Assembly (NCBI GenBank): GCA_016748015.1
Contig: JAAOMT010000761.1
Span: 49,331 to 113,330, forward strand
Direction of reading: 5' to 3'
Origin: Geosiphon pyriformis uo1
Taxonomy: Eukaryota; Fungi; Glomeromycota
Length of the DNA stretch: 64,000 nucleotides
Part shown: piece by piece, positions 13,179 through 61,880 of the stretch
Layout of the letters: every line of letters begins with the position of its first letter
Position numbering within the stretch: position 1 is the stretch's first letter
Notes under the pieces: model-generated
Database searches by the model: none
Told to the model about the DNA's origin: nothing
The model's input: only the letters and a program-made list of their open reading frames with translations
Program-made: the position numbers and the translations under genes

Positions 13179-13761
13179 TAGATCTGGTTTGGAAAATTGC
13201 AACATGCAATGTTCATGGTATTAATGTCTCTGCCAAGCAGAAAGACGTTGTTTGTTGGCATGTAGATTCTGGAAGTATGGTTTCTATTGTTATGAAAACA
13301 AAGTTGAGATCCAATGCTAGGCCTTAAATTATGAATAAGTTTGATGAAGTGAGGATATTCTCTTCTGGTTTGGACAAAGGGTTTCTTAATACTGGAGTGG
13401 CAATCATTATAAACAATTCTCTTGCATGTCATGTGTCTAAGGTTGAGAAGATTTTTAGTCATCTTGTTTTTGTTTGGCTTCTTTTCAAGAGCAAGTTGTC
13501 AGTAGTGTTTTTGGGTCTATATGTAGATGCTTCTGCTGAAACCAGATTCGACCAAGCTTGCAAAATCAACTCTCTTATTGCTAAGACTGCTAACTCCTCC
13601 ATGTTTATGGTTCTGGACACTGATTTTAATGAGAATGGATATAAAAAGAGTGCTAGTTTTAAGTTCTTCTTGGATTTGGGATTGGTCAACTCTTTTAGTA
13701 GACACCTTCTAATCAAAGCTTTCACTTGGGGCAATTTTCAAGATGCCATAAAGGTTATCAA

Positions 13762-17600: not shown

Positions 17601-19134
17601 ACTTGCTTTGGAGTGTGTGCCCACTTTTTGATCAGTTGACTTATATATAAACAGCCAAGCTTTGTTGGACTTATGTAAATCTGCTGGTAGTATGGCTGGT
17701 CCTGACTTTCACAATAAATGCTGGATCGAAAAAAAACATATTTATCATGTTATTGCAAAAAAAGGTTTGTTGGTTACATGGAATAAGGTCAAAGACCATT
17801 CTGGTGTTATTAAAAATGAACGTGCTGATTTTTATGCTAATGCAACTGTTACATCAAAGTCTTTCCTGTCTATTGTGGTATCTTATCACTTTCTTGTTGT
17901 TGAAGGCAGATCTGTTTCTGGAAATGCTTATCATGTTGCCAAAAATTATTCAATGCTGTTTACTCTGTTGGTTGGGAGGCCAAATGTGTTAATAGTATTA
18001 TTAGTGTGGGTCTCGGTGACCATTTTGATAAAGCCAGAACCTTTTATGATTGGCATCTTGATGGCAGAATCAGATCTGGTTATACTAGCACTGCATTGGT
18101 GACACTTCAGTTATACTTTATGAAGACATTCTATTATCGCTTGCCTATGGCCAAAAGAAAAAAAATGTATAATTCAAATTATCTGAGTGTTGCCTGCATT
18201 TAGTGTGGTTTAGTAAAGAACTCTGATCACATTTTTTCTTACAGTTATGATGTTAATATTAGGGATACTTTATTGTCTAATGTTACTTTGGAGTAGAATA
18301 TGTTGCTAAGTGCTTTTGCCAATAGAAATGCAGTCATTAATTCGCTAAATAAAGCTGCTTCTTCTATAGACTTGTTTACAGTGCTGGCTAAGAGTTTTGT
18401 GCTAAAGAATTGGGTGGTTGACACATTGGGCCATTTAAGTACTAACTCTGATAGAAGTGTGTTGGTTGTCAATTTCATTTGTTATTTTGTTGAGAGTCAC
18501 AGGTCTGCCATTTGGCTGCCAGCAGTTAAGTTGAGGACCTATTATGAAAAATATAATTTCCTGCACATAATGGATTGTCTATTTTTTCGATGTCTGGTTT
18601 GTTTTCTTTATGATCTACTGGAATAATCTGGAATTTCAGTTTCAGGCTAGATATCCTGTGTGTTTTGAATTGTATTCATGTCTAACCAGATTAGATTTTG
18701 GTTTTCTGTGTAATGTTTTTATGGTGGAAAATTTAGGTGTATAGTGCTGCCTTGATTGGCCCAAATGGCTGGTCATGTGTAAAAAAGGCATAAGCCACAC
18801 TTAATTTAAATTATAATGATCTATGTATTTAGGTAGTAGTTGGGCTGCATTCATAAAACTTCTAATAAAAAAAAAATATATTTTTTTATTTAATAAATTA
18901 CAAAAACAAGCAATTGCTTCTTAAACTAATTTTAACAATACAAATTAAGAAAAATAAAATAAAATATGTAAATACCAATAAGTAATTTTTATTCTAAGAT
19001 ATTTAGATACTTAAAGATAGAAAAAAAAAATAAGTAATATAAAAGAAATTAATTAATAATAAGTTTTATTTTGTTATTTTGATCATATTTTTATATAGTT
19101 AAGAGATTCATTACTTATATAATTATTAAAAGTA

Positions 19135-19250
19135 GTTAACAATTAGGTTATTAATTAGGTCAACAATTAAATTATTAATCAAGTTAATAATTAAGTTAAT
19201 AGTTAAGTTATTAATTAAGTTAATAATTAAGTCAATAATTAAATCATTAA
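19135..19250. repeat. 12-bp tandem array (~9 copies, GGTCAATAATTA-like) in the O1 LTR
   Basis: Repeating RGTYAWTAATTA-like units; the O2 LTR has about 4 copies at ~23478-23525. Confidence 0.7.
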
Positions 19251-19349
19251 TTACTATTTAAAAATAAGGTGGCTAATTATATAACATTAATGACTAATAT
19301 ATGTAATAACTAATAAAAACTATGAGTTTTAATTATAATATCATTCTTT

Positions 19350-19905
19350 TTAAAGAAATTAAGCTTCAACAAAATCAAACTATTTATAAAATATTTTAAT
19401 TGAAAAGTTTTTTTAGCTTAAAACTAACTAGTTTATTAAAGTATTTTATAGATAAAGTATATAATATTTGAAATAAAATAAGTTTTATGTTCAAAAAACC
19501 AAATCTTTGTATAAGAGTTTTGGCTTTTTTTGCAATAGTCAAAACTTTTAAAACATCTAATTATATAATGTCCAAAATTTCTATTTGTATCTTTAAAGTT
19601 GTTTTTTTTAAGAGTTTTATATCTTTTATAACTTTATCAAATCAAACATAAAGCTTTAGTTGTCTTTTATATAATAAGTTTTTGTTTATGAGCAAATTTT
19701 TTTTAATTGTTTTTTCAAGTATATTAAAAGATAATAATATGGTTGTTATTATGCTTTTAAGTATATATTTATTAATTTTATTACTAATTTTTTTTCTTTT
19801 GATAATGGTTTTTTTTGGTTTAATAATAGTATGTATTTTACTATTATCAATTATGGTGGTTTGTTTTTCAATAGTCAAAGTAGCATTTGAATAATTTTTA
19901 GTCAA
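19350..19905 (-). pseudogene. O1 ORF3 (env-position gene), decayed
   Basis: ORF 19642-19905 ends YKRQLKLY, matching O2 ORF3; terminates in a decayed DFAGAQ-type sequence before the PPT/LTR. Confidence 0.6.
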
Positions 19906-22900
19906 ATATTTATAAAATGTATAAAAAGTATTTTGAATATTTTAATTCAGAAAATAATTGTTTATATCAATTGAAAATATCTCTGTTTTGGGAATAGTAT
20001 ATTTATTTATATCTGATTTTTGTTAATTATTTGGGCTGGTATTATTATAACAAGTAACTAATTAGGTTATTTGTGATATTTTTTGAATTACATGTCATAA
20101 ATAAAGTGATTATTAAAAATTATTTTATATTAATTTTGTAAAATATAAAAACTATTGTTAGCTATAAAAAATTCTTTTTATTGATTAAAAAATTTATTAT
20201 CATAAACATTGTTTCTGTTTAAATAATATTTTAAAACTAAATTACTAATATTTAAGAAAAATGTTTTATAAGTTTTTTTTTTCTTAAGCTTTTTTTAAAA
20301 CCATTTTATCTTTTCAATGGCAATTATTTATGCTTTTACTAAGAAGTTAAGAATAATATCAAGTTTTTTTACAAAATGTTTTTATAATTTTTTATTATAA
20401 TTTTTTTAAAAAATATTGTTTTAATATCTGTTTCTATTGGCAAAGTTGCTATTTGTTTATAAAACAGATAAAAAAATTTATAACTTATTATATTATAATT
20501 TACAGTTTTATAAACAAATAAGACTAAAAACAATATTTTGTTTTATAGATTAGTTTTTTTACTGGTTTTGGTTAAGGTTTTATATAGTGTTCTATTAAAA
20601 TATTTTACTAAGCTATTTGATTAAAAATAATAAAAAGAAAAGAATTTATGTCATATTCTTATTTTTCTACAAAGTTTTTTAATTAGTGTACTAAGAAAAG
20701 CTCTTTTTTTATTAGATAAAAATTTTTTTAGACAGCCATAGTAACAAATAATATCTTTATAAATAAAATTGGCTATTAAAACTGTTGTTTAATTTGAAGT
20801 AGTTTTTGTTTTTATCTATTTTGTAAAATAGTTAGTAATTGTGATAATATATTTATTGTTATTAAGAGTTATTATTAAAAATTTAATAATATCTATATTA
20901 ATTCTGTTAAATAGTTGATTAACAGAAATTGAATAAATATCTTTTTTGTGATTGAGTTTTTTTTTTTTTGGCAAATATTTTAAGTTTTGATGAAATCAAA
21001 AATATTTTTTTCTAAAGTAGGTTAATAATAATAAACAAGTGTTTTCTAGATTGTTTTTGTTTTTTCAAAGTGTTCAACTAATAGATTAGTGTACATATTA
21101 TAAATCATAATTTCTCTTTTTTCAAATTTAATAATTCTTTGGAAGTAATCAAAATTTTTTTTATTTCTTTTGTATAGTTGGTTCTGGTGAATTAAATAAA
21201 AATTTGATTGTTTTTGTAAATATTTTTTTTGCTATTAAGTGTAATCTAATAGATATTATTTTTTATTCAAAAGTTCTATTAAAACAGAGTAATTATTTAA
21301 GTCTATTATTGTATTTAGTTAAGGTAAAATTACTAATAATTATGTTGGTTTGGTTTGTAAAAATTGTACTATTATTGAATAATAAGTCTAAAAAAAGCAT
21401 TAATGTTTTAATAAATTGCTTCTTTATAATATTGTATATTATAATCGAATTTATTCAAATAGAGTATTTAGTAAGTTATTTATTTGTGTTTTAGCTTTTT
21501 TTTTTTGTGCAATTAAATCAAAGCTTGATAATTTGTTATTATTAAGAATTTGGCACCAAGAAAATATTTATTCCAATAACTATACTACTGCCAAATATTT
21601 CTGTTTAATAACTAAGTAGTTTTGTTCTGCTGAAGAAAGTGATTGATTAGAATAAACTATAATATGTTCTTTGTTATTTTTATCTTTTTGAAAAAAAACA
21701 GTACCAAGTTCAAAACCAGATATATTAATATGAAGAATAAAAAATTAATTCAGATTAAGTTGCATAAAAATTGGTTTAGTAACTAGTTTTTTTTTTAGAG
21801 TTTCAAAAACTTTTTGTTAATATGTGCTTCAATAATAATTAACAGTTTTTTTAAATAGTTAATTGAAAAAAAAAGCAATTTTAGAGAAATTTTTAACAAA
21901 CTTTTGATAATAAAAAACTAAACCAAAGAAAGAACATAGTTCATAAATATTCATTAATTGTTTAATGTTTTGGACTTTTTTAATCTTGGTTGAATTAAAA
22001 AAAAATTTATTTTTTATAATAAAATAACCAAGAAACTGAATAGATTAACATCTAAAAAAAATTTAATTAGATTAATCTTAAGACCAATATTTCTAAGCAG
22101 ATCAAAAATTTTTGTAGATGTTCAAAGTATTTATTTCAGATTTTTGAATATACTATTATGTTATTTAAATAAACTAAAACAAAGCTTTTTTTTACTAATT
22201 TAAATACTTTGTCTATTAAGCATTGAAAAATGAAAAGAGCATTAATAAGACCAAAAGGCATAACTGTAAATTTGTAAATACAATATTTGATAATAAAAGC
22301 AGTTTTTTTTCTGCTTTTTGGATTCCATTTTACTTGTCAGAATTCAGAATTAGATTAATAGTTAAGAAGAAAACAGCATTATTAAATTGGTTTAATATTG
22401 CATTAATCTTAAAAAATAGATACATGTTTTTTTTAATAATAGAATTTAATTAGCAGTAATCAATACAAAAACATAAAGTTCTACCTTTTTTAGATACTAC
22501 TATAACTAAAGAGACTTATTTACTTTTGATTTTTTGTTTAAATTCAAAGTTTTTTATCTGATTTATTTTTTTTCTTAATAAATTTATTATTGTAATAATT
22601 GAACTAATAAGACTTTAAATAAATAAAACAAGTTTTTTTGGTGATAATAATATGTTGTATTATATAAATTTGTCTAAAAATATTATCTTTTTTTGATATT
22701 ACTAAACTGTTTCTAATCAACAGATTTTCAATCTTCATTTTTTTTTAAGAAAAGTTTTTTTTATTTCATTACTAATAATTATATGTTAAGCAGTTTATTT
22801 TCAAAAAACTTCTGTATTTTTTTATTTTTTTTTAAATATTAAGCTAATAAGTTCTTAATCTTTGTAATAAATTAGGCAAGACTTGTATTAATTACTAAAA

Positions 22901-22945: not shown

Positions 22946-23945
22946 TATTATGAGTTAGAGTAATAAGTTAACGGATAACAAGGAAGAACAGAATTATAGG
23001 GTAATAAAAGAAATCAAAGAGAATTTAACTTCAAAGAGCAAATTGAATAAGTATAGATTCAATATGTAAAATCAGTCTCATAAAATATCTCAGTCACTAT
23101 ACTTTTTAAAAGATAACTAGAAAATCTGAAGGTAAAGAGATAATCCATACTGTCAACAAATAATCACACACTAGTATAATTCTATGTCTTATATTAGCAC
23201 TTTTAGAATTCAATATCAAATATCAAATGTACTCTTTAGTCATGTTTTATTCAATAATTTTCAAATGCTTCAATTATATATTTCAGAAAAAAAGTAGATA
23301 AATGCCAACAAGTAATCTTTTATTCCAAAATGTTCAGATACTTGAAGATAGAGAAAGAGAAATTAGTGATAAAAAAATAATTAAGATGAAAGTTGTTATT
23401 TTATTTATTTTTTTTCTTTGATTTTTATATGCTTTTCTATAGTTAAGAGATTCATTACTTATATAGTTATCAAAAATGGTCAATAATTAAGTCAATAATC
23501 AGGTCATTAATTAGGTCAATAATTATTATCTAAAAATAGGGTAGCTAATTATATAACATTAGTGGCTAATACATGTAATAATTAATAAGAAGTATAAGTT
23601 TCAACTATAATATTATCTTCTTCAAAGAGATTGAGCTCCAGCAAAATCAAGCTATTCATAGTATAATCTATTTAAAAAGTTTTATCTAATTTAAAACTAA
23701 CTAGTTTGTTGAAGTTTTTTGTAGATAAGATATATAATACTTAAGACAAAATAAGTTTTGTATCCAAAAGACCAAATCTTTATATTAGAGTTTTAGCTCT
23801 TTTAGCAATAGTTAAAACTCTTAGAACATCTAGCCGTATAATGTCCAAAATTTCTGTCTGTATCTTTGAAGTTGTTTTCTTCAAGAGTTTTATATCTTTT
23901 ATGATTTTACCAAGACAACCATAGAGTTCTAATTGCCTTTTATAT
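22946..23945 (-). mobile_element. O2: 3' LTR (22946-23612), PPT and 3' half of ORF3 of a younger O-family element nested in O1; interrupted by A
   Basis: Minus strand reads YKRQLELYGCLGK...IAKRAKTLI*RFG...DFAGAQSL* AGAAGAT AA T(G>A)TTATAG...; homologous to the O1 segments but less AT-shifted. Confidence 0.8.
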
Positions 23946-24785
23946 TGTTACAGGTAATTATTTGGGGTCTCAAGTCAAATAACAAATCTATAACATAGTG
24001 CTCAATTGGTATATTGATTTTGGTTTCTGAAAGTTGTTTGTATTGGAAGATTTTTGTTGAGTTCTTTGTATAATAGACAGAGATTCAATTGTTGTTTCAG
24101 TAGCTTCCCAGAATTGCAATTCTGTCAAATTTTTTTCTCAGCATGGTAATCAGTAATCTTCCTGGTAAGCTATCCTCAATTATGAGTGTTCTACTCTTGT
24201 TTCACGAGTTTTTTACCAGTTTTTATGATGTCTATAACTTAGTGCTTTAATCATTTTAATCAATTAGTACAACAAAAAGAAATAACAAAGAAAAATAAAA
24301 GAAAGTAAAAGAAAATAAAGAAATAAGCCAAGACAATTGTAAGTTAGTATTCTGTCAATAGCCATAATCAAGAGCTATTGTTCCAGTATGGTTAAATATC
24401 AATTTCTATCAACATAAAGTGTTGATAGTAAAGTGGATTTGGAATAGTGAATAATTATTTATTAATATTTGTGATGTGAAGGGTTGCTTAGATAAAATCT
24501 AAACTGAGATGTCTGTTTTTTTTTCTTCTAATATTATCACTATATATACATAATTTATGTTCTATGAGATCACTCATATTTCTAAGCAATGTGTTATAAT
24601 TTCTTGAACAATGCTTACATTGCTAAGCAATGTGCCCTAATTTTTTAATATTGTTCCATATTGCTGAACAATATACCATAATTTCTGATATTGTTTTACA
24701 TTGCTGAGCAATATGCTTATGTATTAATTACTACTCTCTTATTGGTCTACTATTTTTCTATATTTGTTTTTTTTTATGAGTAATA
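23946..24785 (-). repeat. A 3' LTR (840 bp)
   Basis: Minus strand T(G>A)TTACTCATAAAA...CCTGTAACA, preceded by PPT AAAGAGAAGAT-AA; CACATTGC palindrome array at ~24570-24720. Confidence 0.92.
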
Positions 24786-24798
24786 TTATCTTCTCTTT

Positions 24799-25434
24799 TT
24801 AATATTGAGCTCTATCAAAATTCTCATTTTGAATTATGTTAAATACTTCTTTTTCAAGTAGCATCTGTTTTACTTTACTTTTTATTTCTTCAATTTGTGA
24901 GTTGTTTATTCTTCTTTATTGGTTGATGGTTATTGTTTCTATGTCAGAGTGTAACAATACTTCTGGGTAGTTTTGAAATATAGTATATAGTCAATAAATA
25001 GTCCTGATATATAATATCAAGTTTGTTTTCTTTTCAATAATGTTTTTAATGTTCCAGATTATTTTTTGGTTAAAGATTCTTTTGGATTTGTTAAGATATA
25101 ATTTCTGAATATCTACTTTTCATCCCAGTTGATAGTAGTAGTAAGGTATTGAAAATTGGTCTATCCATTTGTTCCAATTTTTTTTTGCCAGTTTTTTTGT
25201 TGAAACCATGATAGTTATCTTCCCAAAAGTGTTCTTTACTTTCTCAACTATTTTATCTGTTCAGTTTATTGATTGTTTTTGTGATTGCTGGTATGGTGTA
25301 TTTTTCCATTTTTGTTTGGTGTTTCAATAACAGATTGTTTGGTTGTTAATAATAATTTCTATGTTTACTTGCTGTTAACTTAAAGTCTAAAACAATTATT
25401 GAGCTAAAGTATAAATATAGTCTGGTATTTCTAT
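24799..25434 (-). pseudogene. A ORF3 (env-position, unknown function)
   Basis: (M>I)EIPDYIYTLAQ*LF...IIINNQTICY...YYQLG...FDRAQY*. Confidence 0.8.
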
Positions 25435-25488: not shown

Positions 25489-28400
25489 TTAATTTAACAT
25501 ATTTGGTTCAATTACTATAATTGGTTTCAGATCTTGTGAAATCTTATCTGGTTAGACTAGTATTCTCTGTGCTCTTAGTTGTGAAATATTATTGATAAAT
25601 GTTGATGCTATGTTTTGATAGAGTTTCAATCGATCTTCATGTGCTGCTTTGGTTAAAATTTTGTTGTTCAATCTTAATTTATAAGCTTCATTTTCTAGAA
25701 TTTTTTCTACATAAAATGATTTATCTTATTTGAGGTCAAATTTTCCACTCCATTGTTTTTCTGCTTTGGTATGATGTAAAAGTACTTTGTCTCCAATCCT
25801 GAATTTGACTGGTTTATCTGATAGTTGATTATTATGTCTTTTTTTTTGTTTTTCTTGTAACTTTTGAATATTATTAGCTGCTTTTTGCCATTTGTTTTCT
25901 AATGTTTCTATTAAGTCATATGTTCTTCTCAACAATGTTCTTTGAAAATTTTTTTTTGTTATTAGTTCTGTTAAATATGTTTTGACTTCTATCTTAACTA
26001 GTAATGTTACTGTTCTACTGTATACTAATTCAAATGGTATTGCTTGTGTAGTGTCTTGTTTTATTGTTTGATAAGCAAATAATATTGATGGTATGAACAA
26101 ATTCTATTTGTTCTAGTTTTTCTGGCTGATCTTAGTTATTGTTTCACACAGTGTTTTGTTGAACTTTTCAATTAACCTATTTGTTTATGGATGGTATAAT
26201 GATGATAATGGTCTTTTTATCCCAAATCTTTAACTTAATTTCACTAATGTTCTATTCACAAAGTGAGTTTCTTAATCTGATAGTAGTTTTTTTGGACATC
26301 TATATTAACAGATCAAATCTTGATAAACAAATTTGGCAACAGATTCTGCATCTGCTTTTTGAATGGCTTTTGCTTTTGGCTATTTTGTAAGATAATTCAT
26401 GACTACTGCAATATATTTGTTGCCTCTGCTGGTTATTGTTAATGGTCCAACTAAGTCAATTTCAATGTGATCAAATAGTTGTCCTACTTTGATTGGTCTT
26501 AACAGTTTACTAAGTCTTGTTCCTTCTTTTCCCTGACAAGCATTACAATTTTGGACATATTAAATAATGTCTGAATATATAGATGACCAATAATATTTTT
26601 TTCTGGTTCTTTCTATGGTTGTTTTTTTATGAAAATGTCCTGCTGTTGGATCTGAGTGCATGTTAAATAATATTGTCTCTTTCTTTGGTTCTGTAATTAC
26701 TCTGGTTGATTAATTTGGATTTTTTTGTTTTTCTGGTAAAATATATTTTGATGGTTGATAAAATATTTTGATTGTTGTTTTATGTTGTTTTGTTCTTTTT
26801 GAAATAATTTTTCCTTGAACAATTGGGTATTTATATAATATTGGAGTTATTAGTATTTTTGTATATTCATCTTTTGTTATATTTTTGGGTTAAAATGTTT
26901 TTAGATTTGTTTCATTTGTGACAATCTGTCAGTATTTCCATTTTTTTTTCTTTTTTATAATGTTTGTATAATTAAATAGTGAAAGTTCTATTTTCTATCT
27001 GGCATAGCAATTATCTCCAAATTTTTGCTTCTGGATTGAAGTCAATCTCTTGTAATCAGTGTATATCTCAAACTTTTGACTCAAGTATTCTTTTTATTTG
27101 GTAACAGCCCAATAAATAGCTAAGTGTTTTAGCACTGGAGTTTTATAGTTCTTTTCGGCTGGACTTAAGCTTCTACTGATGTAAGCTACTGGATGTTCTT
27201 ATTTATCTGGTCTTTTCTGCAATAGTACTGCTTCCAATGCTTGACCAGATGCATCAGTTGTAATTATAAATGACTTGCTATAATCCGAATAGATCAGTAC
27301 TGACTTGAATAAGCTTTTTTTTAATGTATCAAAAGCTTCTTACTGAGTTTCTGTTCATTTATATTTGGTGTTCTTTGTTTGGTGTTGGTATAGTAGTTGA
27401 GCTATTTTGGAAAAGTCTTTAATAAAGCAGCAGTAGTATCTCACAAATCCCAAGAATGCTTTTAATTCTGTAAAATTATTTGGTACTAGAAAGTTCTTAA
27501 CAATTTTAATCTTGTCTAAATCTGTTTTAATATCATTTTTGCTTACAACATGTTCCAAAAACTTGAGTTTTGTTTTGCCAAAGAAATATTTGTTTGCATT
27601 TAATTTCAATTCTGCTTGTTTGAGTCTTTCAAATACTTGTTGAAGATGATGCAAATGGTCATCAAATGTTTTTAAGAACACATTGGTGTCATCCAAGTAT
27701 ACAACTACTGATTTTTATAGTAGCCTAGTATAAACAATTTTCATAAATTGCTGAAAAGTGACTGGAGCATTCATCAAGCCAAATGGCATAATCTCAAATT
27801 CAAAATTCTTTTTTCATGTTGTAAAAGCTTTTTTCTCTTTATCTTCTGGTTTTATGGCTACTTGTTAGTAACTACTGTCTAAGTTTAAAGTTAAAAACCA
27901 TTTTTTTCCTCCAAAAGTGTCAAACAGCTCTTGGATCTTTGGAATTGGGTAGCTATCTCCTTTGGTCACTTCATTTAGTTTCTGGTAATCTACACAAAAG
28001 TAGATTTTCCCATTTTTCTTACAGACTAGTATTATTAGTAATGATTATGGGCTCATTGATGGCTGAATTAGCTTATTGTTAAGCATCCAATTGATTTCTT
28101 AACAAATAATCTTGTGGCTGGCTAATGGTACTCAATATGCTCTTTGTTTAATTGGCATTGTATTTCTAGTCTTAATCTGGTGCTGGATTATGTCAGTTCT
28201 GCCAAATTCATTTTTACTAGCAAAGATGTTATTGAAGTTGTTAAGTAACATCTTGAGTTATATCCATTAAAATGAGTCTAAGTTTCCCAAATTCATTTGT
28301 TCCAACTGTTTTGACTAGAGCAAATAATATTTATCTCATCTGTATATTGTTTGTAATGTAATATCTACATATCTGCACAATTGTGGAAAATCTGGAATGG

Positions 28401-28533: not shown

Positions 28534-29510
28534 TGTTACCAGTAGAATTTTAGCTATTAATTAACATGAAATTACTCTCATAATTCTTATTATTAATTAG
28601 CATATATTATTATTATTTCAATTATTACTTATTAATTAATCAAATTATCAAATATTATTACTTAATCAATAATCCGATTTGTACTCTAGAAATTAAGATG
28701 ATCAAATTACACAATATTTTGAACCATTTAACATAGTCAAAATTTGCTAAAATTAATAAAAATTGGCCGAAATAATCAATAGTTCAGTAAAATAACTTGT
28801 AGTTTGCTGAAATGTATTTTTATTTTACCCAAATTGTAGCAAAGAAAAAAGTGCAAGTTCAAAGACTAGTACTACAACAAGTTGTATAAAAAAAGAGCTT
28901 CTTTTTTCAAGAAAATGTATCTTTTTATAGTATTTTCTCATAGTATTATAACATAGTATCTTACTTTTGATATCTTAAATTGAAACAAATCACTTTTTAC
29001 ACTTTTCAAATAAAAATTAAAAAAAATTTGAAAACAAATCCTTTAAATTATTACACTTGAAATTCCCTCAACACAATTAACATTTCGAAATTAATTAGCT
29101 ACCAATTTCAGTAATCTGTTAGTAACTCCAGGTCTGGACAGAAAATGTTTCTCTTGACAGAATTTTATTTCTTTTATTTTTCTATTCTTTTCTTATTATA
29201 ATCATTAGAGTAATCTACAGATGAGATTCCTGTAAAAGAGTTGACTTTTACAGCAAAGTAACTACACATTTTAGTGAGCTTTCAGATGAGCAATTCCTAG
29301 GAAAGAGTTAACATTTACTACAACATAACTACACAAAGTAATTGGCATAGAATTGGCCATTCCACTTATAAGCCCAGCAGTTCAAATTATAAGAGATAAT
29401 TTAAAAATAAATTCAGTTATTAGAGGTTCAACTACTTCCTAAAAATGTGAATTCATAGCAAATCAACATTAACAACATTCAAAAAAAGAGACCAAAAACC
29501 TCTTGTAATA
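28534..29510 (+). repeat. B 5' LTR (977 bp)
   Basis: Direct repeat of 37138-38129; followed by TT+TGGTGCTC. Confidence 0.95.
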
Positions 29511-29512
29511 TT

Positions 29513-29528
29513 TGGTGCTCTCCCATAG
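29513..29528 (+). promoter_or_regulatory. B primer-binding site
   Basis: TGGTGCTCTCCCATAG two nt after the LTR; complementary to a tRNA ending ...GAGAGCACCA. Confidence 0.75.
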
Positions 29529-29555
29529 AAATAATACAACAACAACAAATTGAAA

Positions 29556-32500
29556 GTGGCGACCATATCAGACATAACAACTCTAGAGTATTATCAGTCA
29601 ATTTACACTCACTGCAAGCAAAGATTCAACATCTCAGACGGAATTGAAGTTGTCAAGAAGTCAGTATACTAATACATCAAAAACTGCATCAACAATTATT
29701 TTTTTGAAAACTACAACATTTCAGAAGTTAGAAACAACCTCTATAATAATTTAGTGCACTATTCACAATTGGAAACAGAAAACCTGAACAGTGAAACTCT
29801 TGCAACCTACTTCCAAGAACTTAACTACAACATTATTTAGTATTGTGAAGAAAAATACCCAGTACAGTCTAGATATTTTATTGACTTTGAATTAGAAACA
29901 GAAACAAGCAACAAAGGCAAACAAAAATTAAAGCAACATTCAAGCACCACCTCAACTACTCCAAAAACACCAAAAATAACTGCCAAATATTTGCAAACTC
30001 CAGAACAAGGAACCAACACCAGACTTTTATTCTCAGTTACATCTTTTTTAATTTTACTTGCTTAACCACAAATACCAAATTCACCACTTATTCATTTTTT
30101 AAGACCAGAAGATTTTCAATTATCCAAAAGTTCCACTCAACAGCAAGAATCTATATTAACCAGCACCAATATTATTGATTACTTACAAGAAAACAAAAGT
30201 AATCATTCAGAGAACTTGGAAAGTGAAGAAACTGAATCAGAACAAAAAAAAACTACAGAAAACAAAGAAAAAATGACAACTGCTTACATTGCAAAGATTC
30301 CAGAATTTACTAGTGAAGATAATAATACCAGTCTTCAAGAATAGCTTGACAAAATTCAAAAAGCAGGAGATACAAATGGTTGGAATATAGCAAAAATGCT
30401 CAAAACAATTTCATACTTTCTTCAAAGAACTGCAAGAAAATGATTTAAAAACTTAAAAGAACCATTTGGAATTTGGCAAGCATTCAAAGATGCTTTCTTA
30501 CAACAATTCACTGACAACAACATCTCTATCACTTTTCACAATCACTTTTATAATATCAAACAAGAAACATCTAAAACTGTCATGACTTATCTTGAGAGAT
30601 TCAACAAACTTTTTTGACAAATTTAACAATTAGAAAACAATAAATACTATTCCAATGCTCAGATTTTGGATCAATTTATAGCAGGATTAAAAGACAAATT
30701 AATCAAAAAAGTTTACTCACATGTACCAGAAGACTTAGCAACAGCCATTAGATATACAAAGAATTATGAAATGGCAATAGAAGAAGCAAATCACACCAAA
30801 CTTGTCAACTTAGCCATTGGAAAAACCAGTTCAGCAGCCAAAGAAAAAATAGATCAACTCACAAAAAAAGTTGAAAACTACTTTACAAACCAACAACAAC
30901 AGCAGCAACAACCACAAAGATATTAACCACCACAATAATGCAACCAAAACAATTTTGGATCACCATCCAACAATCAATCTCAAAATTGTTATTATTGTGG
31001 AATTTTAGGACACTAGAAACGAAATTGCAGGAAATTACAAAGAGACCAACAAAACAGGAGTAATTAATGTTACTTTTTACTACAACAATCTTATTACCAA
31101 TTCCTACCACCAACTTATTATTTACTAAGACCACAAAATCAAAACAGTTACTATTAACCAGCTCCACAATCAATGCAGCAACAATATCAGCAATCTTTAC
31201 CAATTCAGCAATATCAGACACCACCTATTCAACAATATCAAGTACCAGCCAGAAGATTGGTTCAACATAACCAATTTTTACTCCAAAATCAATTTCAGAA
31301 TAACAACAACAGAACCAACCCAAATAACCAGTTGGTTCTTCGAAATTCTGGTTAGCAAAGACCCAATCACTATCATACTCAACCCAGTTATCTTACAATG
31401 TCTGAAGGATCGGATTTTCAACAAACTGTACTTCCTGAAAGTAAAGTTGCAGCACCAAAATCAAACCCTTCCAACAATACTATTTCACCAGCTCAAATTG
31501 CCCAAAATGCCAACTTTTCAGATATATTCCCATTCGAATTTAAAGCAAATAAATCACCATTCTTGCTTAGTAATGCAGCAGCTAATGAACAAAAAGCTAT
31601 CACTGCTATGTATACTGAAACTACAGTAGAAGAAAACCCATCCAATTAATTCTAGACAGTGGATTAGCTGGAAGTATTATTACCTATCAGTTAATACAAC
31701 AGCTTCAAAGAACTGTTGACAAACCAGCCCAAACTGTAATTGTTATAACAGATGGTATAAAAAAGATACCAGTAGGAGAAATTGACAATTTCCTTTTTAC
31801 CATTAATGAAATCACCATTCTAGTCAAAGTTCTAGTTATGGATACACTTCAATACCAAGCTTTTGTCAAAAATAATTGGCTTCTCAAGGCCAATGCAAAT
31901 TTAGATTGGGAAACTCAGGAACTCAAAATTTCATACCAAGGACAATACACCATAGTACTTGCTACTTATAGCACTTTTAACAAATGATCAGAAAAAGCCC
32001 CAGTGTTTAAATTTGAGGAGGAGAAGGAAATGCCACTTATTGAAACTTATATGGCACTTAAATCAACATCTAATTGGACTGAGAAAACAGAACAAGAGAT
32101 TTTTGAAGAGTCAAGAAAATGGAAGAAAGTTAGATATTCCACACTAAAATCACGGAAACAACCACCTTACATTCTACTTAAATGCAGAGATTGCAAAAAA
32201 AAACTTTCATCAATGAAAGCATGTATTTTTCCAGAAGAAAAATATGAAACTCACATCTGCTACTTTTGCAAAATATGCTATAGAGAACAATTTGGATATC
32301 CCAAAAAGAGTGAAAAATAGAACAACATTCCTTGTTTTATATGTAGAAATATACTACCAGAAGAATGCAACTGAATTGATGTTACAATGAGAGGAGGAGT
32401 ATATAACCAAACCTGCCAATATGTCTTATCAATTTCGGAAAAAGTTAAAAGAAAAACACCTTTTGATACAACATACAACAGTGCTCTCAACAAACTGTAC

Positions 32501-35500
32501 CACTATCTACATAATACTGAAATGATCTTTGATTTAGCAATGGCTTTAATTAATGGAGCCACACAGAAAGATGTCTGCCAAATAAAAAAAGCTGAGTATA
32601 TTGAATATACAATAGAATTAGCTGGATTCAACTATGAAGATAAAGTAAAAACATACCACCAAATTGCAAGCTACATATACTCAACTCAAGAAGCTCAAAT
32701 TCAATGATTAGAGCAAATGAATATTCAATTGTGTGAAGAATGCATCATGCCTTGTGATAAAAAATAGTGTCCAGAATGCTATGCTCTTAGCATTCTCCTA
32801 CCCAGCGAAAATGACCAGGAAGAAATTGAATTTGGAAAACTAGAAACAAAAGAAGAAATTACAACCACACCAATTTACTTTATTGAAAACCAGTCTGCTA
32901 TACAACTCAAATACTTTGACAACAATGGAAAAGGAATAAAACCAGAAAAAGCCCACGAAATTAATGCAGGATATGACTTAAGATATTCTGGCAAAGATAT
33001 TTTGGTTCTTCAACCAAAATCCTTAACCAAAATCAACCTTAGAATTGCTCTTGAAATACCACCAGAAGCAATAGTACAAATTGCTTTCTGATCATTATTG
33101 GCAAGCAAAGGAATCAATGTTAGAAAAGAAGTTATAGATGCAAGATAGACTGAAAACATTATCATCATGTTACAGAATGAAACAGACAAACCATTCCGGA
33201 TTGAACATGCTGAAAAAATTGCCCAAGCAATTTATCTATCTTTAATTAACATTTCAGGTTTACAATCAGTTGATAACAGAGAACAATTGGAAAAAAGTAA
33301 AAAAAGAATACAAGTTTTGGTTCAACTGAACGATTTATAGTATCAGTAAACATAGCACTCAATGCACAAAATGAATCCCACCAGATTTTTCAACTTCCCC
33401 AACCAATTATCATTTAATTTTTTGGTGAATATTATGAAATCTACACTTGCTCAAAACCTCCTTAGAACCCCAACAACAAAGACAATTGAAACAATTGATA
33501 GCTAAATTTACAAATATATTTGCAAAAGACAATAATGATCTTGGAAAAACTGATATTGTTTAACACCAGATTTACACAGAAGATGCTTTACCAAAACAAC
33601 AACAGGTCTATCAAGTTCCACCTGCTAGCCACCAATTTATCAGAGAAGAAATCCAAAGAATGCTCAATAATGAATTGATTCAACCATTAAGAAGTCCTTG
33701 GGCCTCACCAGTAGTTCTTGTTAAAAAGAAAAATGGAAAAATCAAATTCTGTGTAGATTATTGCCAGCTCAATAGCATGACAATTGGAGATGCCTACCCT
33801 CTTCTAAGAATTAATAATATGCTGGATGCCTTAGGAAAAGCCAAGTTCTTCTCAACTTTTGACTTGGAAAGTGGATACTGACAAGTCGAAATAGACCCAA
33901 AAGATCGACCCAAAACAGCATTTACCACTCAAGAAGAGAACTATAAATTCAATATTATGTCTTTTGAACTCTGCAATGCACCAGCAACATTTCAACAACT
34001 CATAGATGTTGTATATAAAGGACTTTTGTGGCAATTAGTAGTTGTCTATCTTGATAACACTAATGTGTACTCTCCAAGCTTTGAAGCTTATCTCATTTAC
34101 CTGCGAGAAGTTTTTCAATGATTATGGAAATCAAGATTAAAGTTAAATATTGAGAAATGTCACTTTGGAAAAACAAGTTTAATTTTTCTTGAATACATTG
34201 TTAGCAAAGATGGAGTCAAACCAAACCCTAGAACAATCAGTGCTGTCAAAAACTTTCAAACTTCCAAAAATACCACAGAACTATGAAAATTTGTAAGATT
34301 AGCCTTCTACTATCAAAAATTTATAAAAGAATTCTCAAAGATTACCAAACCACTCAATTGTCTTATCAACAAAAACATGCCATATCAATGGACTGAAGAA
34401 CAACAAAAAACTTTTGAAACCCTCAAAACAAAATTAACAACAGTCCCAGTTCTTGCTTACTCAGACTTCAACAAACGATTCTAATTAGCCACTGATGTCT
34501 CACAAATAGCATTTGGTGCCATCTTATCACAATTAGATAAAAATGGCCAAGAACAAGTCATTGCCTATGCCAGTAGAACATTCAAACCAACAGAACTCAA
34601 ATATGGCTCAATTGAATTAGAAGCTGCCACAGTCATTTGGGCTCTTAAACATTTTTAACAATATCTAAAGAATGGAAAAGAGTTTGACATCATAACTGAC
34701 AATATTGGTCTCAAATAACTCAATAAAAAGAAAACTAAACAAAGTGCCAAACAGTCTTAATAGAATGACTTTCTAGCAAATTACAAATATACTGTACACC
34801 ACAAACCAGGAAAATTACACACCAATATTGATAGCCTTTCAAGAATAAGACAAGATTAATAACACCAACAAATTCATCACAACTTACTAACCTACCAACA
34901 AATAACAAAACAACAATAGACCCAGAAATTACAACAATCTTAAAAACTATTTGGAGACTCTTATCATACCAAAAAATTGGTCTCCAAGTGAAAAACATTG
35001 ATTACAACACCAATTCAAACAATATTTCATACACCACAACAAAATTTATTACAAAAATCACAGAAATCCAAACCAACCACTCAGATTAATACAAGAGAAT
35101 AAAAAAAACAATCCTATATAAAATGTACACAGATTTTTCTTCAGCACACTTGGAAAAAGATAGAACAATTCAAAAAACTCTTGAACATTATTTTTGGCCT
35201 CACATGTAAAAAGACATTTGACAATATGTAGAATCTTGTGATAGTTGTTAAAGAAAAAAAGAAACTTACTGCACAGAACCTTTAAATCCAATCAAAGTTA
35301 GACAACCTTTTGACAGAGTTGGAATTGATTTAGTCGGACCATTACCTATCACAACCCAAAGAAATTGTTATATTGTAGTTATAGTAGATTATCTCACCAA
35401 ATGGCCTAAAGCTAGAGTCATTCAAAGAGCAGATGCAAAATCAGTAGCAAATTTCATCTATAAAGACATTATTTGTAGAAATGGATGTCTAATTGAACTT

Positions 35501-36298
35501 TTATCTGATCAAGAAACACATTTTGTAAACAACTTGATACAAGAAATTTGTGAACAATTCAATATCAAAAGATCTTTATTATTATCTTATCACCTTCAAA
35601 CAAATAGACTTATAGAACATTTCAACAAAACATTGTGTAAATCTTTAGCCAAAGTCTCAACAGATTTTAAACAGGAATGAGATATCTTTATTCTATCAGT
35701 GTTACTAACATACAGAACACTAAAACAAGATACTATAAAACACATACCATTTGATCTTATTTATAGAAAGACAGCAATATTACCAATTAATTTTACAGTA
35801 GAAACATATCCAGTACAACCAATCAATGAAGAAAACTTTCAGGAAACACTCCAAAGAAAAGTCTACACTCTCCTTAGTACATTGGAAGGAAAAAAACACA
35901 TAGCAGTCTCTCATATTGAACACTCCCAAACTCTACAAAAAGAAAGGCATGACAACAAACTGCTATTAGTTACCAATAAATTTAAGATTGGAAATAAAAT
36001 TCTCTTACACAGAACTAAGGCTGAAAAACAATAGAGTAGAAAATTTAAACATAAATGGGATAGACCATTTTATATTCACGAAATTTTAGGCAATAGATTA
36101 TACAAATTAAAACTTGATGACAAAGTACTGGCAAATATTGCACATAAAGATTGATTGAAACACTATTATTTCAGAAACAATCTTAAACCATTAATTCTAT
36201 AAATTGGTACACATTTTTCTTTAATTAATTCTGAAGATATTCCCCAAAATTTAGAACCAATAATTATAATAAAACAACAACCAAACTTGAATTCTTAA
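29556..36298 (+). pseudogene. B gag-pol polyprotein (extended Gag, PR, Cys-rich domain, dUTPase, RT, RNaseH, IN)
   Basis: Capsid IAKIPEFTSED / ILDQFIAGL; knuckle CYYCGILGH*KRNC (~30987-31028); PR LILDSG (~31650); dUTPase AGYDL..IDA..IAQ..FGST (~32910-33330); RT WASPVVLV, FCVDY, YLDNT; RNaseH TDVS; IN GIDLVGPL, LSDQ, FNKTL. Confidence 0.93.
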
Positions 36299-36451
36299 TT
36301 TAACATTCTTACAATAATTTTTTTAAAACAACACACAAAACCAAAAATAGTAAATAATTACAAATAACATTCAAACCCAAAAACAAATAAAAATCCCATA
36401 CCCAAAAATAATTTTCTTTATTCTTCTTTTTATTAGTTAACCATTTTTATC

Positions 36452-37126
36452 ATGATTATTTTCCGAAATATTCAACAAATATCCCAAAAATTAATGTTAG
36501 CCTTGAAAACACTTCCTGACTTATCCATAACGATTAATGGAAGTCAAATTAATTACATTCAGAAAGAAACCACAGCCCCAGTAGTAAATAATTCTCAGAA
36601 CTATTACTTTTATAGAAGAAAAACAAAAGGTCACTCTGAAAATAGGTTACCAGAACTTTTGAAGCAAGCACTAAAAGAAAATTTTTTAATTGCCCCTATT
36701 AATATTTCACCAAATACCACAATTCAACAAAAGCTTTTACTATTTCTTAATGAACAGAACAATAAACATACCCTTATATATAGATATTTTCATATTGGAA
36801 AAACACTTTATGAACAAAAACTGGAACTTAAAGCAACCAACATCACCTGAGGCTATATAAAAACAAAATCACAATGAATTCAAGACAACAGCTGGACCAA
36901 CAAACATTTGCTACAAACTTAAAGCAGCATCTAGACTCTATGATTTATTTAACACTTGTGAAAATATCTTATAAAATCTAATACTTCATCTAATAAAGAT
37001 TCAATATATTGGAAAGCTTACAGAACTGAAATTTCAACAATTTTCAGACCAAATCACTTCAATCATTTTGGACTACTATCTTGATATCATAAATAGTGCT
37101 TGGACTTTGATGGAGCTCAGTCTTAA
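36452..37126 (+). pseudogene. B ORF3 (env-position, unknown function)
   Basis: ORF 36452-36850 (MIIFRNIQQISQKL...ITINGSQINY...YRYFHIGK) continues with AASRLYDLF...IGKLTELKFQQF...DFDGAQS* immediately before the PPT. Confidence 0.85.
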
Positions 37127-37137
37127 GAAGGAGATTA

Positions 37138-38129
37138 TGTTACCAATAGAATTTTAGCTATTAATTAACATGAAATTACCCTTATAATTCCTATTATTAA
37201 TTAGCATATATTATTATTATTTCGATTATTACTTATTAATTAATCAAATTATCAAATATTATTACTCAATCAATAATTCGATTTGTACTCTAGAAATTAA
37301 GATAATCAAATTACAAAATATTCTAATTCATTTAACATAGTCAAAATTCGCCGAAATTAATAGAAATTGGCCAAAATAATCAATAATTCAGTAAAATAAT
37401 TTGTAGTTTGCTGAAATATATCTTTAGTTCACCCAAATTGTAGCAAAAAGAAAAATGCAAGTTTAAAGACTAGTACTATAACAAGTTGTATAAAAGAAAA
37501 GCTTCTCTTTTCAAGAAAATATATCTTCTTATAGTATCTTCTTATAGTATTTTCTCATAGTATTATAACATAGTATCTTACTTTAAATATCTTAAATTGA
37601 AACAAATCATCTTTTATATTTTTCAAATAAAAATTAAAAAAAAAATTTGAAAACAAATTCTTTAAATTATTATACTTGAAATTCCCTCAACACAACTAAC
37701 ATTTCGAAATTAATTAGCTACCAATTTCAGTAATCTGTTAGTGACTCCAGGCCTGGACAGAAAACGTTTTCCTTGACAGAATTTTATTTCTTTTATTTTT
37801 CTATTCTTTTCTTATCATAATCATTAGGGTAGCCTACAGACAAGATTCCTATAGAAGAGCTGACTTTTACAGCAAAGTAACTATACATTTTAGTAAGCTT
37901 CCAGACAAGCAATTTTTGGGAAAGAGTTGATATTTACTACAATGTAACTACACAAAGTAACTGGCATAGAATTGGCCATTCTATTCATAAGTTCAGCAGT
38001 TCAAATTATAGGAGATAATTTGAAGATAAATTCAGTTATTGGAGGTTCAACTACTTTCTGAGAATGTGAATTCATAGCAAATCAATATTAACAACATTTA
38101 AGAAAAAAGACCAAAAATCTCTGGTAACA
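37138..38129 (+). repeat. B 3' LTR (992 bp)
   Basis: TGTTACC...GGTAACA; contains a 13-bp duplication (ATCTTCTTATAGT x2, ~37522-37547) absent from the 5' LTR. Confidence 0.95.
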
Positions 38130-41100: not shown

Positions 41101-41237
41101 ATTGTGAAAGTTGATAAATTGCCTGATTGTTAGCTAAGTATCCCTCTAATTTTTGATTAATGAAATCACTAAATTGTTTCAACTTTGAGTCTAATTTAGA
41201 TAATCCATTCATCATTAGATTGACAGCTTGAGCATGG
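38130..41237 (-). pseudogene. A gag 3' part, protease, Cys-rich domain, dUTPase
   Basis: Knuckle CHYCDK*EHLRINC (~40965-41010), LILDNGSAGSII, PCNFQYCNKC, EFDLRY..SSLAKKRIN..IAQ. Confidence 0.9.
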
Positions 41238-42087
41238 TATTACTTATAAAATATAGAAAATATATTAGCATATAAATTAGCCAATCAGAAGTAGGCACAG
41301 TAGATATAAAATTTCAGGATTTCTCTCAATAGGAATTACAGAATTCCAAAAATTTCAGAATTCTTATACAAGGAATTGCAGGATTCCAGAATTTCAGAAT
41401 TCTTTTCAAAAGAAATTGCAAAATTTCAGGAATTTCAAGATTCTTGATGTGAGAAATCAAGAAATTAAGAAATCTCAATTATGTATATATAACAATAGTA
41501 TTAAAAGTAGAAAAAATGGATTTTTCAGTTTAGATTTGATTTAAGCAATCCCCTAATTTATAATTATTAATAAATAACTATTCAATATTCTAATCTACTT
41601 TTTACTATTAACACTTCATGTTGATAGTTTTGAATACTTAACTATGCTGGAACAATAGTTCTTAATTATAATTATTGACAAGATACTAACTATTATTGCC
41701 TTGGCTTATTCTTTATTTTCTTTTCTTTTATTTTTCTTTTGTTATTTTTTTTGTTTACTAACTTGATTAAAAAGATTTATGTGCAGAGGTATTAACGTCA
41801 GAATATAGCACTGGTAAAAGACCCAAAAATAAGGGTAGACATTTGGGATTGAGAATATTTTATCAGGAGGATTGCTGACCATCATGCTGAGAAAAAAATT
41901 GATGAAACTGCAGTTTTGAGAAACTATGGATAAAACTATCAGTTAAATCTTTGTCTATTATACAAAGAACTCTACAACAAAACCTTCAGATCACTGAAAC
42001 TTTCAGATATCAACACCAATATAAATTGAACACCAAGTTACAGATTTGTTATTTGATTTAAGACCCCAAATAAACACCTGTAACATT

Positions 42088-48100: not shown

Positions 48101-49151
48101 ATATACAGATCACAAAGAATTGATTTCAATTCAGAAGCAAGAATTTGGAGATGATCACCATGCAAGATAAAAAATAGCACTATCATTATATACATTTACA
48201 GTACATTATAAAAAGAGAAAAGACAATGGAAATACTGACAAATTGTCACAAATAAGACAAATCTAAAAACATTTCAAAACCAAAAATATAACAAAAGATA
48301 AATATACAAAAATACCAACAACTCCAACATTATATAAATACCCAATTATTCAAAGAAAAATTATCTTAAAAGGAACAAAGAAACATAAAACAACAATTAA
48401 AATATTTTATTAACTATCAAAATATACTTTACCGGAAAAACAGAAGAAATCCAGATCAACCAATCAGAGTAATCACAGAACCAAAGAAAGAGACAATATT
48501 ATTCAACATGCACTCAAATCTAACAGCAAAACATTTTCATAAAGAAGCAATCATAGAAAGAACCAGAAAAAGATATTATTGGCCATTAATGTATCCAAAT
48601 ATTATTCAATATGTTTAAAATTGTGATGCTTGTCAGAGAAAAAGAGGAACAAAACCCAGTAAACCATTAAGACCAATCAAAGTGGGACAACCATTCAATC
48701 ACATTTAAATTGATTTAGTCAGACCATTAACAATAATCAGTAGAGGCAACAGATATATTGCAGTAGCCATGGACTATCTCACAAAATGACCAGAAGCAAA
48801 AGCCATTCAAAAAGCAGATGCAAAATCTGTTGCTAAATTTGTTTATCAAGATTTGATCTGTTGACATGGATGTCCAAAAAAATTACTATTTGATCAAGGA
48901 ACTCACTTTGTAAACAGAACATTGACAGAATTAAGTCAAAAATTTGGGATAAAAAGACTATTATTATCACCATACCATCCACAAACAAATAGTTTAGTTG
49001 AGAAGTTCAACAGAATATTGTGTGAAGCAATAGCAAAAATCAGCCAAGAAAACCAGAACAAATGAGACTTGTTTATACCATCAGTATTATTTGCTTATTG
49101 AATAATGAAGTAAGACACTATACAAGCAACACCATTTAAATTAATATATGG
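42150..49151 (+). pseudogene. C gag-pol polyprotein, single reading frame
   Basis: ORFs at 42300, 43359, 44445, 45192, 46050, 46545, 46908 and 47604 are all in frame with GTG 42150. Knuckle CYNCGKQDHLRIDC; PR ILNSRS (from DSGS); dUTPase AKFDL/RSSLA/GIID/IAQ/SFGSTG; RT FCVDY, YLNDT; IN CDAC, DQG. Confidence 0.93.
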
Positions 49152-51765: not shown

Positions 51766-52091
51766 AATCTAAACTAAGGGGCCTCTAACTAAAAAATTCT
51801 GTCTTTTCTACTTCTAGCACTACTGCTATATATACATAATTGAGATTCCTCAATTCCTCAATTTTTCACACCAGGAATCCTGCAATTTCTGGGATCCTGC
51901 AATTTTTTTGAGAGAAATTTTGGAATTCTAAAATTTTGTGATTCCTTGTATAAGAATTCTGAAATTTCTGGAATCCTGCAATTTCTTTGAGAGAAATCCT
52001 GGAATTTCATATCTACTGTGCCTACTTTTGATTGGGTAATTTATATGCTAATATACTTCTTATATTCTATAAGTAACATTATTCCCTTCTT

Positions 52092-52721
52092 TTAATATTG
52101 AGCTCTGTCAAGATCTCCCAAATTTAATTCTCCATCTTTGAGTATTTCTTGAACTTCTTTTTTAAGAATTATTTGTGTTATTCTGTTCTGTAATTCTTCA
52201 AATTGGGCATTGGTTATTTTTCTCATTTGGTTTACTATAATAAAGTTTATTTTTGGATTAAGTAAGATTTTTGGTCTGTCTTGAAATCCAGTATGTAGCC
52301 AATAGATGGCTTGTGCTTGTGTAGTTAGGTTGTTCTTTTCTACAAATTGTTCCAGTTATAACAGTATAGTTGTATCAAATAATTGTTTTGTTTTATCCGT
52401 GTATAAGTTTTGAATGTTCAAGTACTGTCCCAAGTGAAAGTAACAGAAGTTTTTTGGAAATTGTTGTATTTACTAATTCCAAGTTTTTATAGTTAACTCT
52501 TGATAGTGGATGGTTTTTGGGTGTGTTTCTATTGCCAATTTTACTTTTGCAATTATTTTGTCCATAGTGTTTTCTGTTTTTCTCCGTATTTTGTTTTATG
52601 GTCTTTTTCTGGTGTTTGTGTATTAGATAATTTGTTGGTTAATTGTAATTTTCATTTCTTGTTGTTGTATTAGTTGGAAAAGTTGCTGTGCTAGTGAATG
52701 TATGCTGTTAGTGATTTCCAT
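52092..52721 (-). pseudogene. E ORF3 (env-position, 209 codons, single frame)
   Basis: MEITNSIHSLAQQLFQLIQQQEMKITINQQII*Y...NFCYFHLGQYL...QAQAIYWLHTGF...MRKITNAQFEELQNRI...DLDRAQY*; internal stops are mostly Gln-type CAR>TAR. Confidence 0.88.
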
Positions 52722-52780
52722 TTTCTACTGTTTTTTGTCGCATATACTGTGTTTTTATATACTTTTTTGATTGTTTAATT

Positions 52781-61191: not shown

Positions 61192-61820
61192 TTAATATTG
61201 AACTCTATTGAGATTTTCCAAATCTTCTAGCTTTAGTTCTCTGTCTTTGGGTATTTCTTGAACTTCTTTTTTGAGAATTACTTGAGTTATTTTGTTCTGT
61301 AATTCTTCAAATTGGGTGTTAGTTATCTTTCCCATTTGGTTAACTGTAATAGAATCTATTTTTAGATTAAATAAGATTTCTAGTCTATTTTGGAATTCGG
61401 TATGTAATCAATAGATGGCTCTTGCTTGTGTTGTTAGATTGTTCTTTTCCACAAATTGTTCCAGTTATTGCAGTATTGTTGTGTCAAATAATTATTTTGT
61501 TTTATCTGTGTATAAATTCTGAATATTCAAGTGTGGAAATAACAAAAGTTCCTTGAAAATTTGTGTATCCACTATTTCCAAGTTTTTTTGGTTAACTCTT
61601 GATATATGATAACACTTGTTAGTTCTTCCATTGTTAATTTTATTTTCAGAACTATTTTGTTAATAGTGTTTTCTGTTTTCTTTTGACTTTTGTATTTGAA
61701 TATCTTTCTGATATCTTGGTATCGAATAATTTGTTGATTGATAGTAATTTCTATATTCTGTTGTTAAATTAGTTAGAATAGTTGTTGTGCTAGTGAGTGG
61801 ATATTGTCAGTGATTTTCAT
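61192..61820 (-). pseudogene. F ORF3 (env-position)
   Basis: MKITDNIHSLAQQLF...QARAIY...QFEELQNKI...NRVQY*; close homolog of E ORF3. Confidence 0.85.
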
Positions 61821-61880
61821 TTTTCTGAAGTCTTTTGTCGTGTCTGCCATGTCTTTATATACTTTTTTTATTGTTTAATT

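Follow-up and report, generated by a model that had tools for sequence, protein, structure and literature searches.

Extra open reading frames are already known from gypsy elements (PMC2864245, PMC7264820, PMC6431247, PMC5408684 and PMC10309623, each as represented in the text available to us). The additional Ty3/gypsy frames described in the accessible part of PMC2864245 include a conserved ORF that follows pol and precedes the 3′ LTR, as do the elements of Geosiphon pyriformis analyzed here, and a dUTPase between protease and RT is likewise shared. By description, the third gene of the Geosiphon elements (ORF3) is set apart from those ORFs in that it lies on the sense strand, has a soluble product without a Pfam name, and accompanies a separate integrase. 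Bdelloid LTR elements, in the sections of PMC5408684 available, carry third ORFs of the Env-like, GDSL esterase and DEDDy exonuclease types; the position is common to both systems, as are a dUTPase and the occurrence of an ORF3 in several lineages, but no enzyme or membrane domain was detected in Geosiphon ORF3. Errantivirus Env occupies the same place behind integrase (PMC3383448, available text), whereas ORF3 is without a transmembrane segment and its Pfam Env matches do not rise above noise.

Foamy virus Tas is a nuclear protein with an acidic domain at its C terminus; it binds both the internal promoter and that of the LTR, and has little homology from one species to another (PMC517496, as excerpted). 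On the accounts available in PMC517496 and PMC13220597, Tas/Bel1 and ORF3 are alike in being the product of a small 3′ accessory gene, with an acidic C terminus, a possible internal promoter, and fast divergence between lineages. In contrast with Tas, the host is a fungus, env is absent, and DNA binding and activation are predictions; no sequence or fold similarity to Tas appeared in the Pfam, PDB or viral fold search listings (the fold models being of low confidence). CERV, from the C. elegans element Cer1, likewise belongs to a gypsy element and is an accessory protein of nuclear type distinct from Env. It is reported in the accessible text of PMC10309623 to come from a spliced mRNA and to act in RNA export, whereas no conserved splice acceptor was seen for ORF3; the two are likened here by description.

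Organization of the Window and of Element B

The window (the whole 64,000-nt stretch of DNA analyzed) consists of decayed retrotransposons, both LTR and non-LTR, nested in one another, in a genome of which LTR sequence makes up 41.2% (PMC11952901, available text). Element B spans 28534–38127 including both LTRs, which are of the TG..CA type; a PPT is present, the end of the 5′ LTR is mutated, and the flanks match only in part when checked for a target-site duplication (Table 1). Pfam matches in its pol comprise protease, dUTPase, RT_RNaseH, Integrase_H2C2 and rve, in the Ty3/gypsy (Metaviridae) order PR-RT-RNase H-IN. Within B (28534–38127) the observed/expected ratio is 0.14 for CpG and 0.73 for TpA, and its decay is probably of a methylation type rather than classic RIP. 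The low CpG value, together with LTR differences that are almost all transitions, points to high silencing pressure.

Between its protease and dUTPase, pol has a Cys-rich segment containing several CxxC pairs, at about 32100–32800 (+) and 55630–56856 (−). Regions at about 1850–8400 and 12700–18100 appear to be decayed non-LTR (LINE-like) elements, as judged by a zinc knuckle, a weak RNase H match, and what we take to be an endonuclease-like motif. A run of 20 N stands at 608–627.

Table 1. Positions of ORF3 copies and associated features (window coordinates unless L001 is given)
Feature	Position	Strand	Remarks
5′ LTR of B	28534..29508	+	89.7% identity to 3′ LTR; transitions 82/87 substitutions
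RNase H stop and spacer of B	34857..34915	+	56-nt G-free A/C-rich spacer; precedes integrase
Integrase of B, separate ORF	34916..36298	+	start codon ATA in B copy; GPY/F-type C-terminal part
Spacer of B, 153 nt, G-poor	36299..36451	+	integrase stop to ORF3 ATG; pyrimidine tract at its end; without TATA box
ORF3 of B	36452..37157	+	dead copy: frameshift near 36848 and stops; last 20 nt past PPT, in 3′ LTR; stop at 37155
Conserved DNA element GGAGCTCA... and PPT	37112..37137 (PPT 37125–37137)	+	seven 3′ junctions set in register
3′ LTR of B	37138..38127	+	TGTTAC..GTAACA; 13-nt tandem repeat at 37522–37573
ORF3 of O1, true frame	19310..19965	−	frameshift near 19408; TATAAAT at 20011
Degenerate RT-RNase H of O1	22041–21583	−	upstream of O1 ORF3
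Separate integrase of O1	about 21290–20100	−	upstream of O1 ORF3
ORF3 of O2, 3′ half, true frame	23582..23944	−	
U3 of A 3′ LTR	24549..24787	−	four palindromes of ATTGCTNAGCAAT type, 41-nt spacing
ORF3 of A	24799..25434	−	211 codons, 8 stops; 38% identity to P0007
U3 of E 3′ LTR	51835..52078	−	six (C/T)AG(G/A)AT(T/C)(C/T) repeats
ORF3 of E	52092..52721	−	209 codons, 5 stops; C terminus DRAQY, then stop
TATATAAA box of E	52754..52761	−	40 nt before ORF3 ATG; same box at 61861 (F) and 25476 (A)
ORF3 of F	61192..61820	−	one frameshift near 61525
RNase H stop/spacer sites	34857–34916, 26880–26920, 48260–48300, 54160–54200, 63260–63300, 21310–21380; L001 772–798		

ORF3 Copies, Reading Frames and the Terminal DNA Element

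The earlier note had claimed six copies of a same-strand ORF that follows the integrase stop and precedes the PPT. ORF3 is present at this place in B, A, E, F and O1, whereas O2 retains the 3′ half only, cut by the LTR of element A. The coordinates and frames proposed for A, E and F stand, but two of the three families, B and O, had been partly misread. Family profiles singled out the sense frames. The intact relatives P0092, P0093 and P0151 match ORF3 of B (tblastn) in two abutting frames that switch near 36848, so that copy B does not end in DGAQS as first read; they end in ..LSLEEEIMLP(V/I)EF or ..D(E/K)IRDII, inside the LTR. Because these relatives run through the PPT into the LTR, the gene of B is delimited as in Table 1. 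For O, the frame first read is interrupted by 24 stops over 202 codons in O1 and by 8 over 107 in O2, as against 3 over 199 and 3 over 120 in the true frame. The latter is the one matched by 98 database proteins, and DFAGAQSL, previously taken as the O C terminus, is therefore out of frame; the true O2 frame ends in ..LELNLFEEDNIIVETYTSY, and O relatives, typically of 218 aa, end in ..ELNLF(E/G/R)EDDVMVETHSFY. ORF3s of A, E and F end in (D/N)R(A/V)QY and a stop, their intact relatives in DFDGAQY or close variants.

Seven junctions have GGAGCTCA-type DNA in common, about 25 nt before the LTR and running into the PPT. It is read as (F/D)x(G/R)AQ(Y/F) and a stop in A, E, F and family P0358, and one base over, as EL(S/N)LxEE, in B, O, P0347 and P0357. 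What had been proposed as a C-terminal protein motif shared across families is thus one DNA element in different frames per family; a shared “DGAQ” motif was rejected, the true frames of B and O reading ELxLEEE there. DNA that is conserved irrespective of its reading frame suggests a cis element separate from the protein, and the two-frame reading backs the cis signal suggested before. From its location, the element likely acts in plus-strand priming or PPT cleavage.

Relatives and Selection

Intact ORF3 proteins are 209–245 aa long (B 221–245, E 209, O 218). All matches listed in the protein searches were Geosiphon pyriformis gene models (84 of 84 for E, the best 120 of 139 for B, 98 of 98 for O), and ORF3s are matched by at least 321 protein clusters of Geosiphon labelled “hypothetical” (84 + 139 + 98). 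On profile comparison, the ORF3s of B and E/A/F are homologous: hhalign matches the E profile to that of B along 188 columns (probability 86%, E 4.8e-6), intermediates bridge the roughly 22% identity between B and E/A/F, and B proteins reach a median of 16.9 bits with the E profile, versus −1.5 reversed. Homology of all three families, as claimed at first, is unproven for O, whose profile gave no significant hhalign match to B or E. A wider profile scores the 98 O proteins, which are related to one another, at a median of 4.4 bits versus −0.4 reversed (shuffle maximum 8.1), colinear from the N terminus, and this sequence link of O to the B/E family is suggestive.

A search of 1.84 billion representatives with a B+E+O profile gave 127 matches, 105 of them new; 81 of the new ones are at least 55% identical to B, E or O, and the other 24 include further families. 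Ten new matches were looked up, eight being from Geosiphon and two metagenome proteins (P0347 and P0357), which score with both the B and E profiles and so bridge B and E. The metagenome locus L001 is independent of the window and has RT-RNase H, a stop, integrase, a 316-nt spacer, an intact 230-aa ORF3, PPT and LTR, the same integrase-ORF3-PPT-LTR order as in the window elements; its RT-RNase H and integrase are ∼35% identical to those of O1 and 46–56% to those of B and E. A second locus, L002, has an integrase end, an extra 137-codon open frame (398–811, ending about 26 nt before the ORF3 start), and then ORF3. B+E sequence patterns had zero matches in metagenome contigs, viral contigs gave zero ORF3 matches, and the ESM Atlas returned no usable match for P0007.

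dN/dS, which the earlier note had proposed as a check, was calculated for ORF3 (Nei-Gojobori) at 0.29 (0.16–0.48) for E-A, 0.24 (0.15–0.38) for E-F and 0.21 (0.09–0.43) for O1-O2; the A-F comparison is saturated. Shifted frames gave 0.53–1.53 and integrase 0.35–0.48. Neutral transition-biased simulations (six settings of 400) had medians of 0.50–0.60 and 2.5% bounds of 0.29–0.35. Since all three ORF3 values fall under their own 2.5% bound, the frame was under purifying selection.

A Separate Integrase and the Expression of ORF3

In all seven elements examined (B, A, D, E, F, L001 and O1) a stop codon closes the RNase H frame and integrase has a start of its own, at ATG or, in B, D and O1, at ATA; an integrase within the Pol polyprotein, the usual Ty3/gypsy trait, was found in none of the seven. 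The intervening A/C-rich spacers are 24–56 nt long, with 0–3% G in the six measured. This arrangement, absent from the earlier note, lends weight to its proposal of a complex retrovirus-like lineage. In the literature searched, neither this ORF3 family nor a separate gypsy integrase is described for Glomeromycotina; such elements may be recorded in Repbase, in subscription papers or in the supplements to PMC11952901 and PMC2864245, which lay outside the search.

The TATATAAA box stands 40–42 nt upstream of the ORF3 ATG in E, F and A, and TATAAAT 46 nt upstream in O1; the two strands of the window hold 26 TATATAAA-type 8-mers, and TATAWAW occurs 2.1 times per kb. No TATA box is found near the ORF3 ATG of B, where a pyrimidine tract stands instead. 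In F an in-frame ATG stands a few nt behind the box; of 84 E models, 23 begin at such an ATG and 34 at the second one. Given an ATG directly behind the box, and the similar spacers between RNase H and integrase, the box may belong to an A-rich translation leader. Internal promoters or stop-restart translation could, from the sequence, serve both integrase and ORF3. A splice acceptor upstream of ORF3 was dropped as a general mechanism, L001 having no AG at the ATG and the AG of B being variable.

Properties of the ORF3 Protein

All nine intact ORF3 proteins have a pI of 8.4–9.7 and 5–8 D/E among their last 30 residues, with 0–3 K/R in seven of the nine. None has a hydrophobic segment (best 19-residue Kyte-Doolittle mean 0.27–1.44) or an R-x-K/R-R cleavage pattern, the only form scanned; RIAR is named as the cleavage-site form of errantivirus Env in the available text of PMC3383448. 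By hydropathy (≤1.44 in 9/9), the claim that ORF3 lacks a transmembrane helix and signal peptide and is not an errantivirus-type Env holds, and Pfam Env models gave nothing above noise. ORF3 is also about half the usual size of an Env. That it is an envelope, a movement protein or a neutral captured passenger, as its env position and the lack of a demonstrated function might allow, is very improbable: the first two are opposed by the missing transmembrane-level hydrophobicity and cleavage pattern in 9/9 proteins, and purifying selection together with colinear homologues at 20–37% identity excludes a neutral passenger.

AlphaFold2 models of B alone and of B+E have mean pLDDT values of 46.0 and 46.6. 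Both low-confidence models show a helix and a hairpin at the N terminus, then a loose linker, a predicted three-helix core (residues 104–175, pLDDT up to about 80) and a poor C-terminal part. Profile searches of Pfam, PHROGs and the PDB gave noise only and no family, Foldseek with the low-confidence models against the PDB and viral structures gave nothing at E≤0.001, and the best VIA Z of 5.1 is within noise for helical bundles. A PDB profile match to importin-5 was rejected when its E value went from 0.005 to 0.4 with a wider alignment. A likeness to DUF1016_N (PF17761, YhcG N-terminal), followed as a lead, is not supported: P0151 scores 12.9 bits (E 0.12) against a cut-off of 32.8 bits, the domain was hit in 2/30 ORF3 members (best E 0.028), and hhalign against 16 YhcG-type sequences gave a probability of 0.4% (narrow profile, Neff 2). 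Residues 104–210 of P0151 have what we take to be the pattern of a short all-helical domain of many Glomeromycotina hypothetical proteins; no such domain was retrieved at E≤0.001 among the identified matches of the B+E+O profile. Neither GDSL esterase nor DEDD exonuclease Pfam families were matched at E≤1 in 30 + 8 ORF3 proteins. The earlier description of a soluble accessory protein of no named family agrees with the hydropathy values and with these profile and fold searches, and ORF3 is a real, conserved, selected accessory gene.

The motif [RKH]x(1-5)PY occurs in the linker of 63 of 120 B proteins (the best 120 of 139), and PY is also present in A, P0342, P0347 and P0357; copy B has lost it, and it was found in 0/84 E proteins (first 80 residues) and 1/98 O proteins. 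The linker motif, as a sequence pattern, fits the PY-NLS core, given in the available text of PMC2408616 as R/H/K-X2-5-PY.

A basic, helical protein with a nuclear-type signal might regulate RNA, as Rev or CERV does, by binding the element's RNA and controlling its export, its splicing or the translation of a downstream cistron. The separate integrase in 7/7 elements implies that subgenomic RNAs or re-initiation must be balanced, CERV offers a precedent (PMC10309623, in the part available), and the conserved 3′-end DNA motif could be an RNA element. We consider such a role unlikely, however, given that Pfam searches found no RNA-binding motif, that L001 and B show no conserved splice acceptor, and that the joint change of ORF3 and U3 would be left unexplained.

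Joint Divergence of ORF3 and U3

Between A and E/F, identity is 81–82% in integrase and 78% (A-F) in the post-TATA part of the LTR, whereas ORF3 (61–62%, shuffle 55%) and U3 (55–57%, shuffle 52–53%, maximum 56%) are near shuffle levels; E and F, compared over the same segments, are 83/79/81% identical. The U3 of E, of F and of an LTR at 41234 each hold six copies of the E-type repeat; repeats in U3 are common among LTRs. Further LTRs lie at 13760–14646 (A type), 41234–42085 (E/F type) and 49148–49890 (E/F type, U3 shortened), and have the post-TATA part in common while differing in U3. Near its start the O-family LTR has a 12-nt tandem array (19110–19265 in O1, with nine overlapping registers; 23478–23526 in O2, with three).

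The joint divergence of ORF3 and U3, which neither integrase nor the remainder of the LTR follows, speaks for a transactivator of the cognate LTR. Among accessory roles transactivation is the best-supported, and we put at roughly 40% the probability that the ORF3 product is a nuclear protein that binds the U3 repeats of its own element and switches on the LTR promoter. ORF3 would be expressed from its own short transcript (A, E, F and O1 having a TATA box 40–46 nt upstream of the ATG) or by translation restart after the integrase stop, and the PY-type linker signal would take it into the nucleus. There the predicted three-helix core would bind the U3 repeats of the family and the acidic-hydrophobic tail would recruit the transcription machinery, forming a feedback loop like that of foamy virus Tas; the terminal DNA motif would act apart from it as a cis signal. 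Against transactivation stand the poor models (mean pLDDT 46 and 47) and the failure of Pfam, PHROGs and PDB searches to find a DNA-binding family or fold, as well as the absence of PY from the E family (first 80 residues; 1/98 in O) and of a TATA box near the ATG of B. The copies A, E and F, in which the box is present, are related to one another, and TATAWAW is frequent in the window. The joint change is moreover one comparison with one switch between neighbouring segments, and since ORF3 and U3 are adjacent, a single recombination tract accounts for it without functional coupling.

The same divergence bears on a partner of the pre-integration complex that carries cDNA or the separate integrase into nuclei, or tethers integration to chromatin. 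Mitosis in the host is closed and each hypha has many nuclei, ORF3 lies directly behind a stand-alone integrase with a short C terminus, a PY-type signal is present, and the window elements are nested in one another. We nevertheless judge this role improbable: A and E/F have 81–82% identical integrase DNA but very different ORF3s, and a partner changing with U3 fits this better than one changing with integrase.

Pairing with family-specific U3 repeats, and fast divergence, would also suit a sequence-specific anti-silencing factor that protects the LTR of its element from DNA methylation or heterochromatin, for which VANC is an analogy and which overlaps with transactivation. The strong CpG depletion of B and its transition-dominated LTR differences are in keeping with such a factor, to which we give similarly low odds, as Pfam shows no similarity to known anti-silencing proteins and direct activation is the simpler account of the acidic tail.

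Implications

If ORF3 acts as a transactivator, these elements may represent a fungal LTR lineage resembling a complex retrovirus without Env, a wider picture that we regard as possible but doubtful. Gag-PR-dUTPase-RT-RNase H would form one frame and integrase its own cistron, and an exchangeable ORF3-plus-U3 cassette would supply both a transcription factor specific for its own element, belonging to a new helical family, and the sites to which it binds. Such a cassette would drive the spread of LTR sequence, now about 41% of the genome of Geosiphon. The stand-alone integrase raises the question of how it is made and packed, and the at least 321 “hypothetical” Geosiphon clusters are transposon genes rather than host genes. 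A family-specific, self-encoded activator would, if real, give a fungal retrotransposon a control loop of the foamy-virus type, and would offer an explanation, open to testing, for the LTR burst of Archaeosporales.
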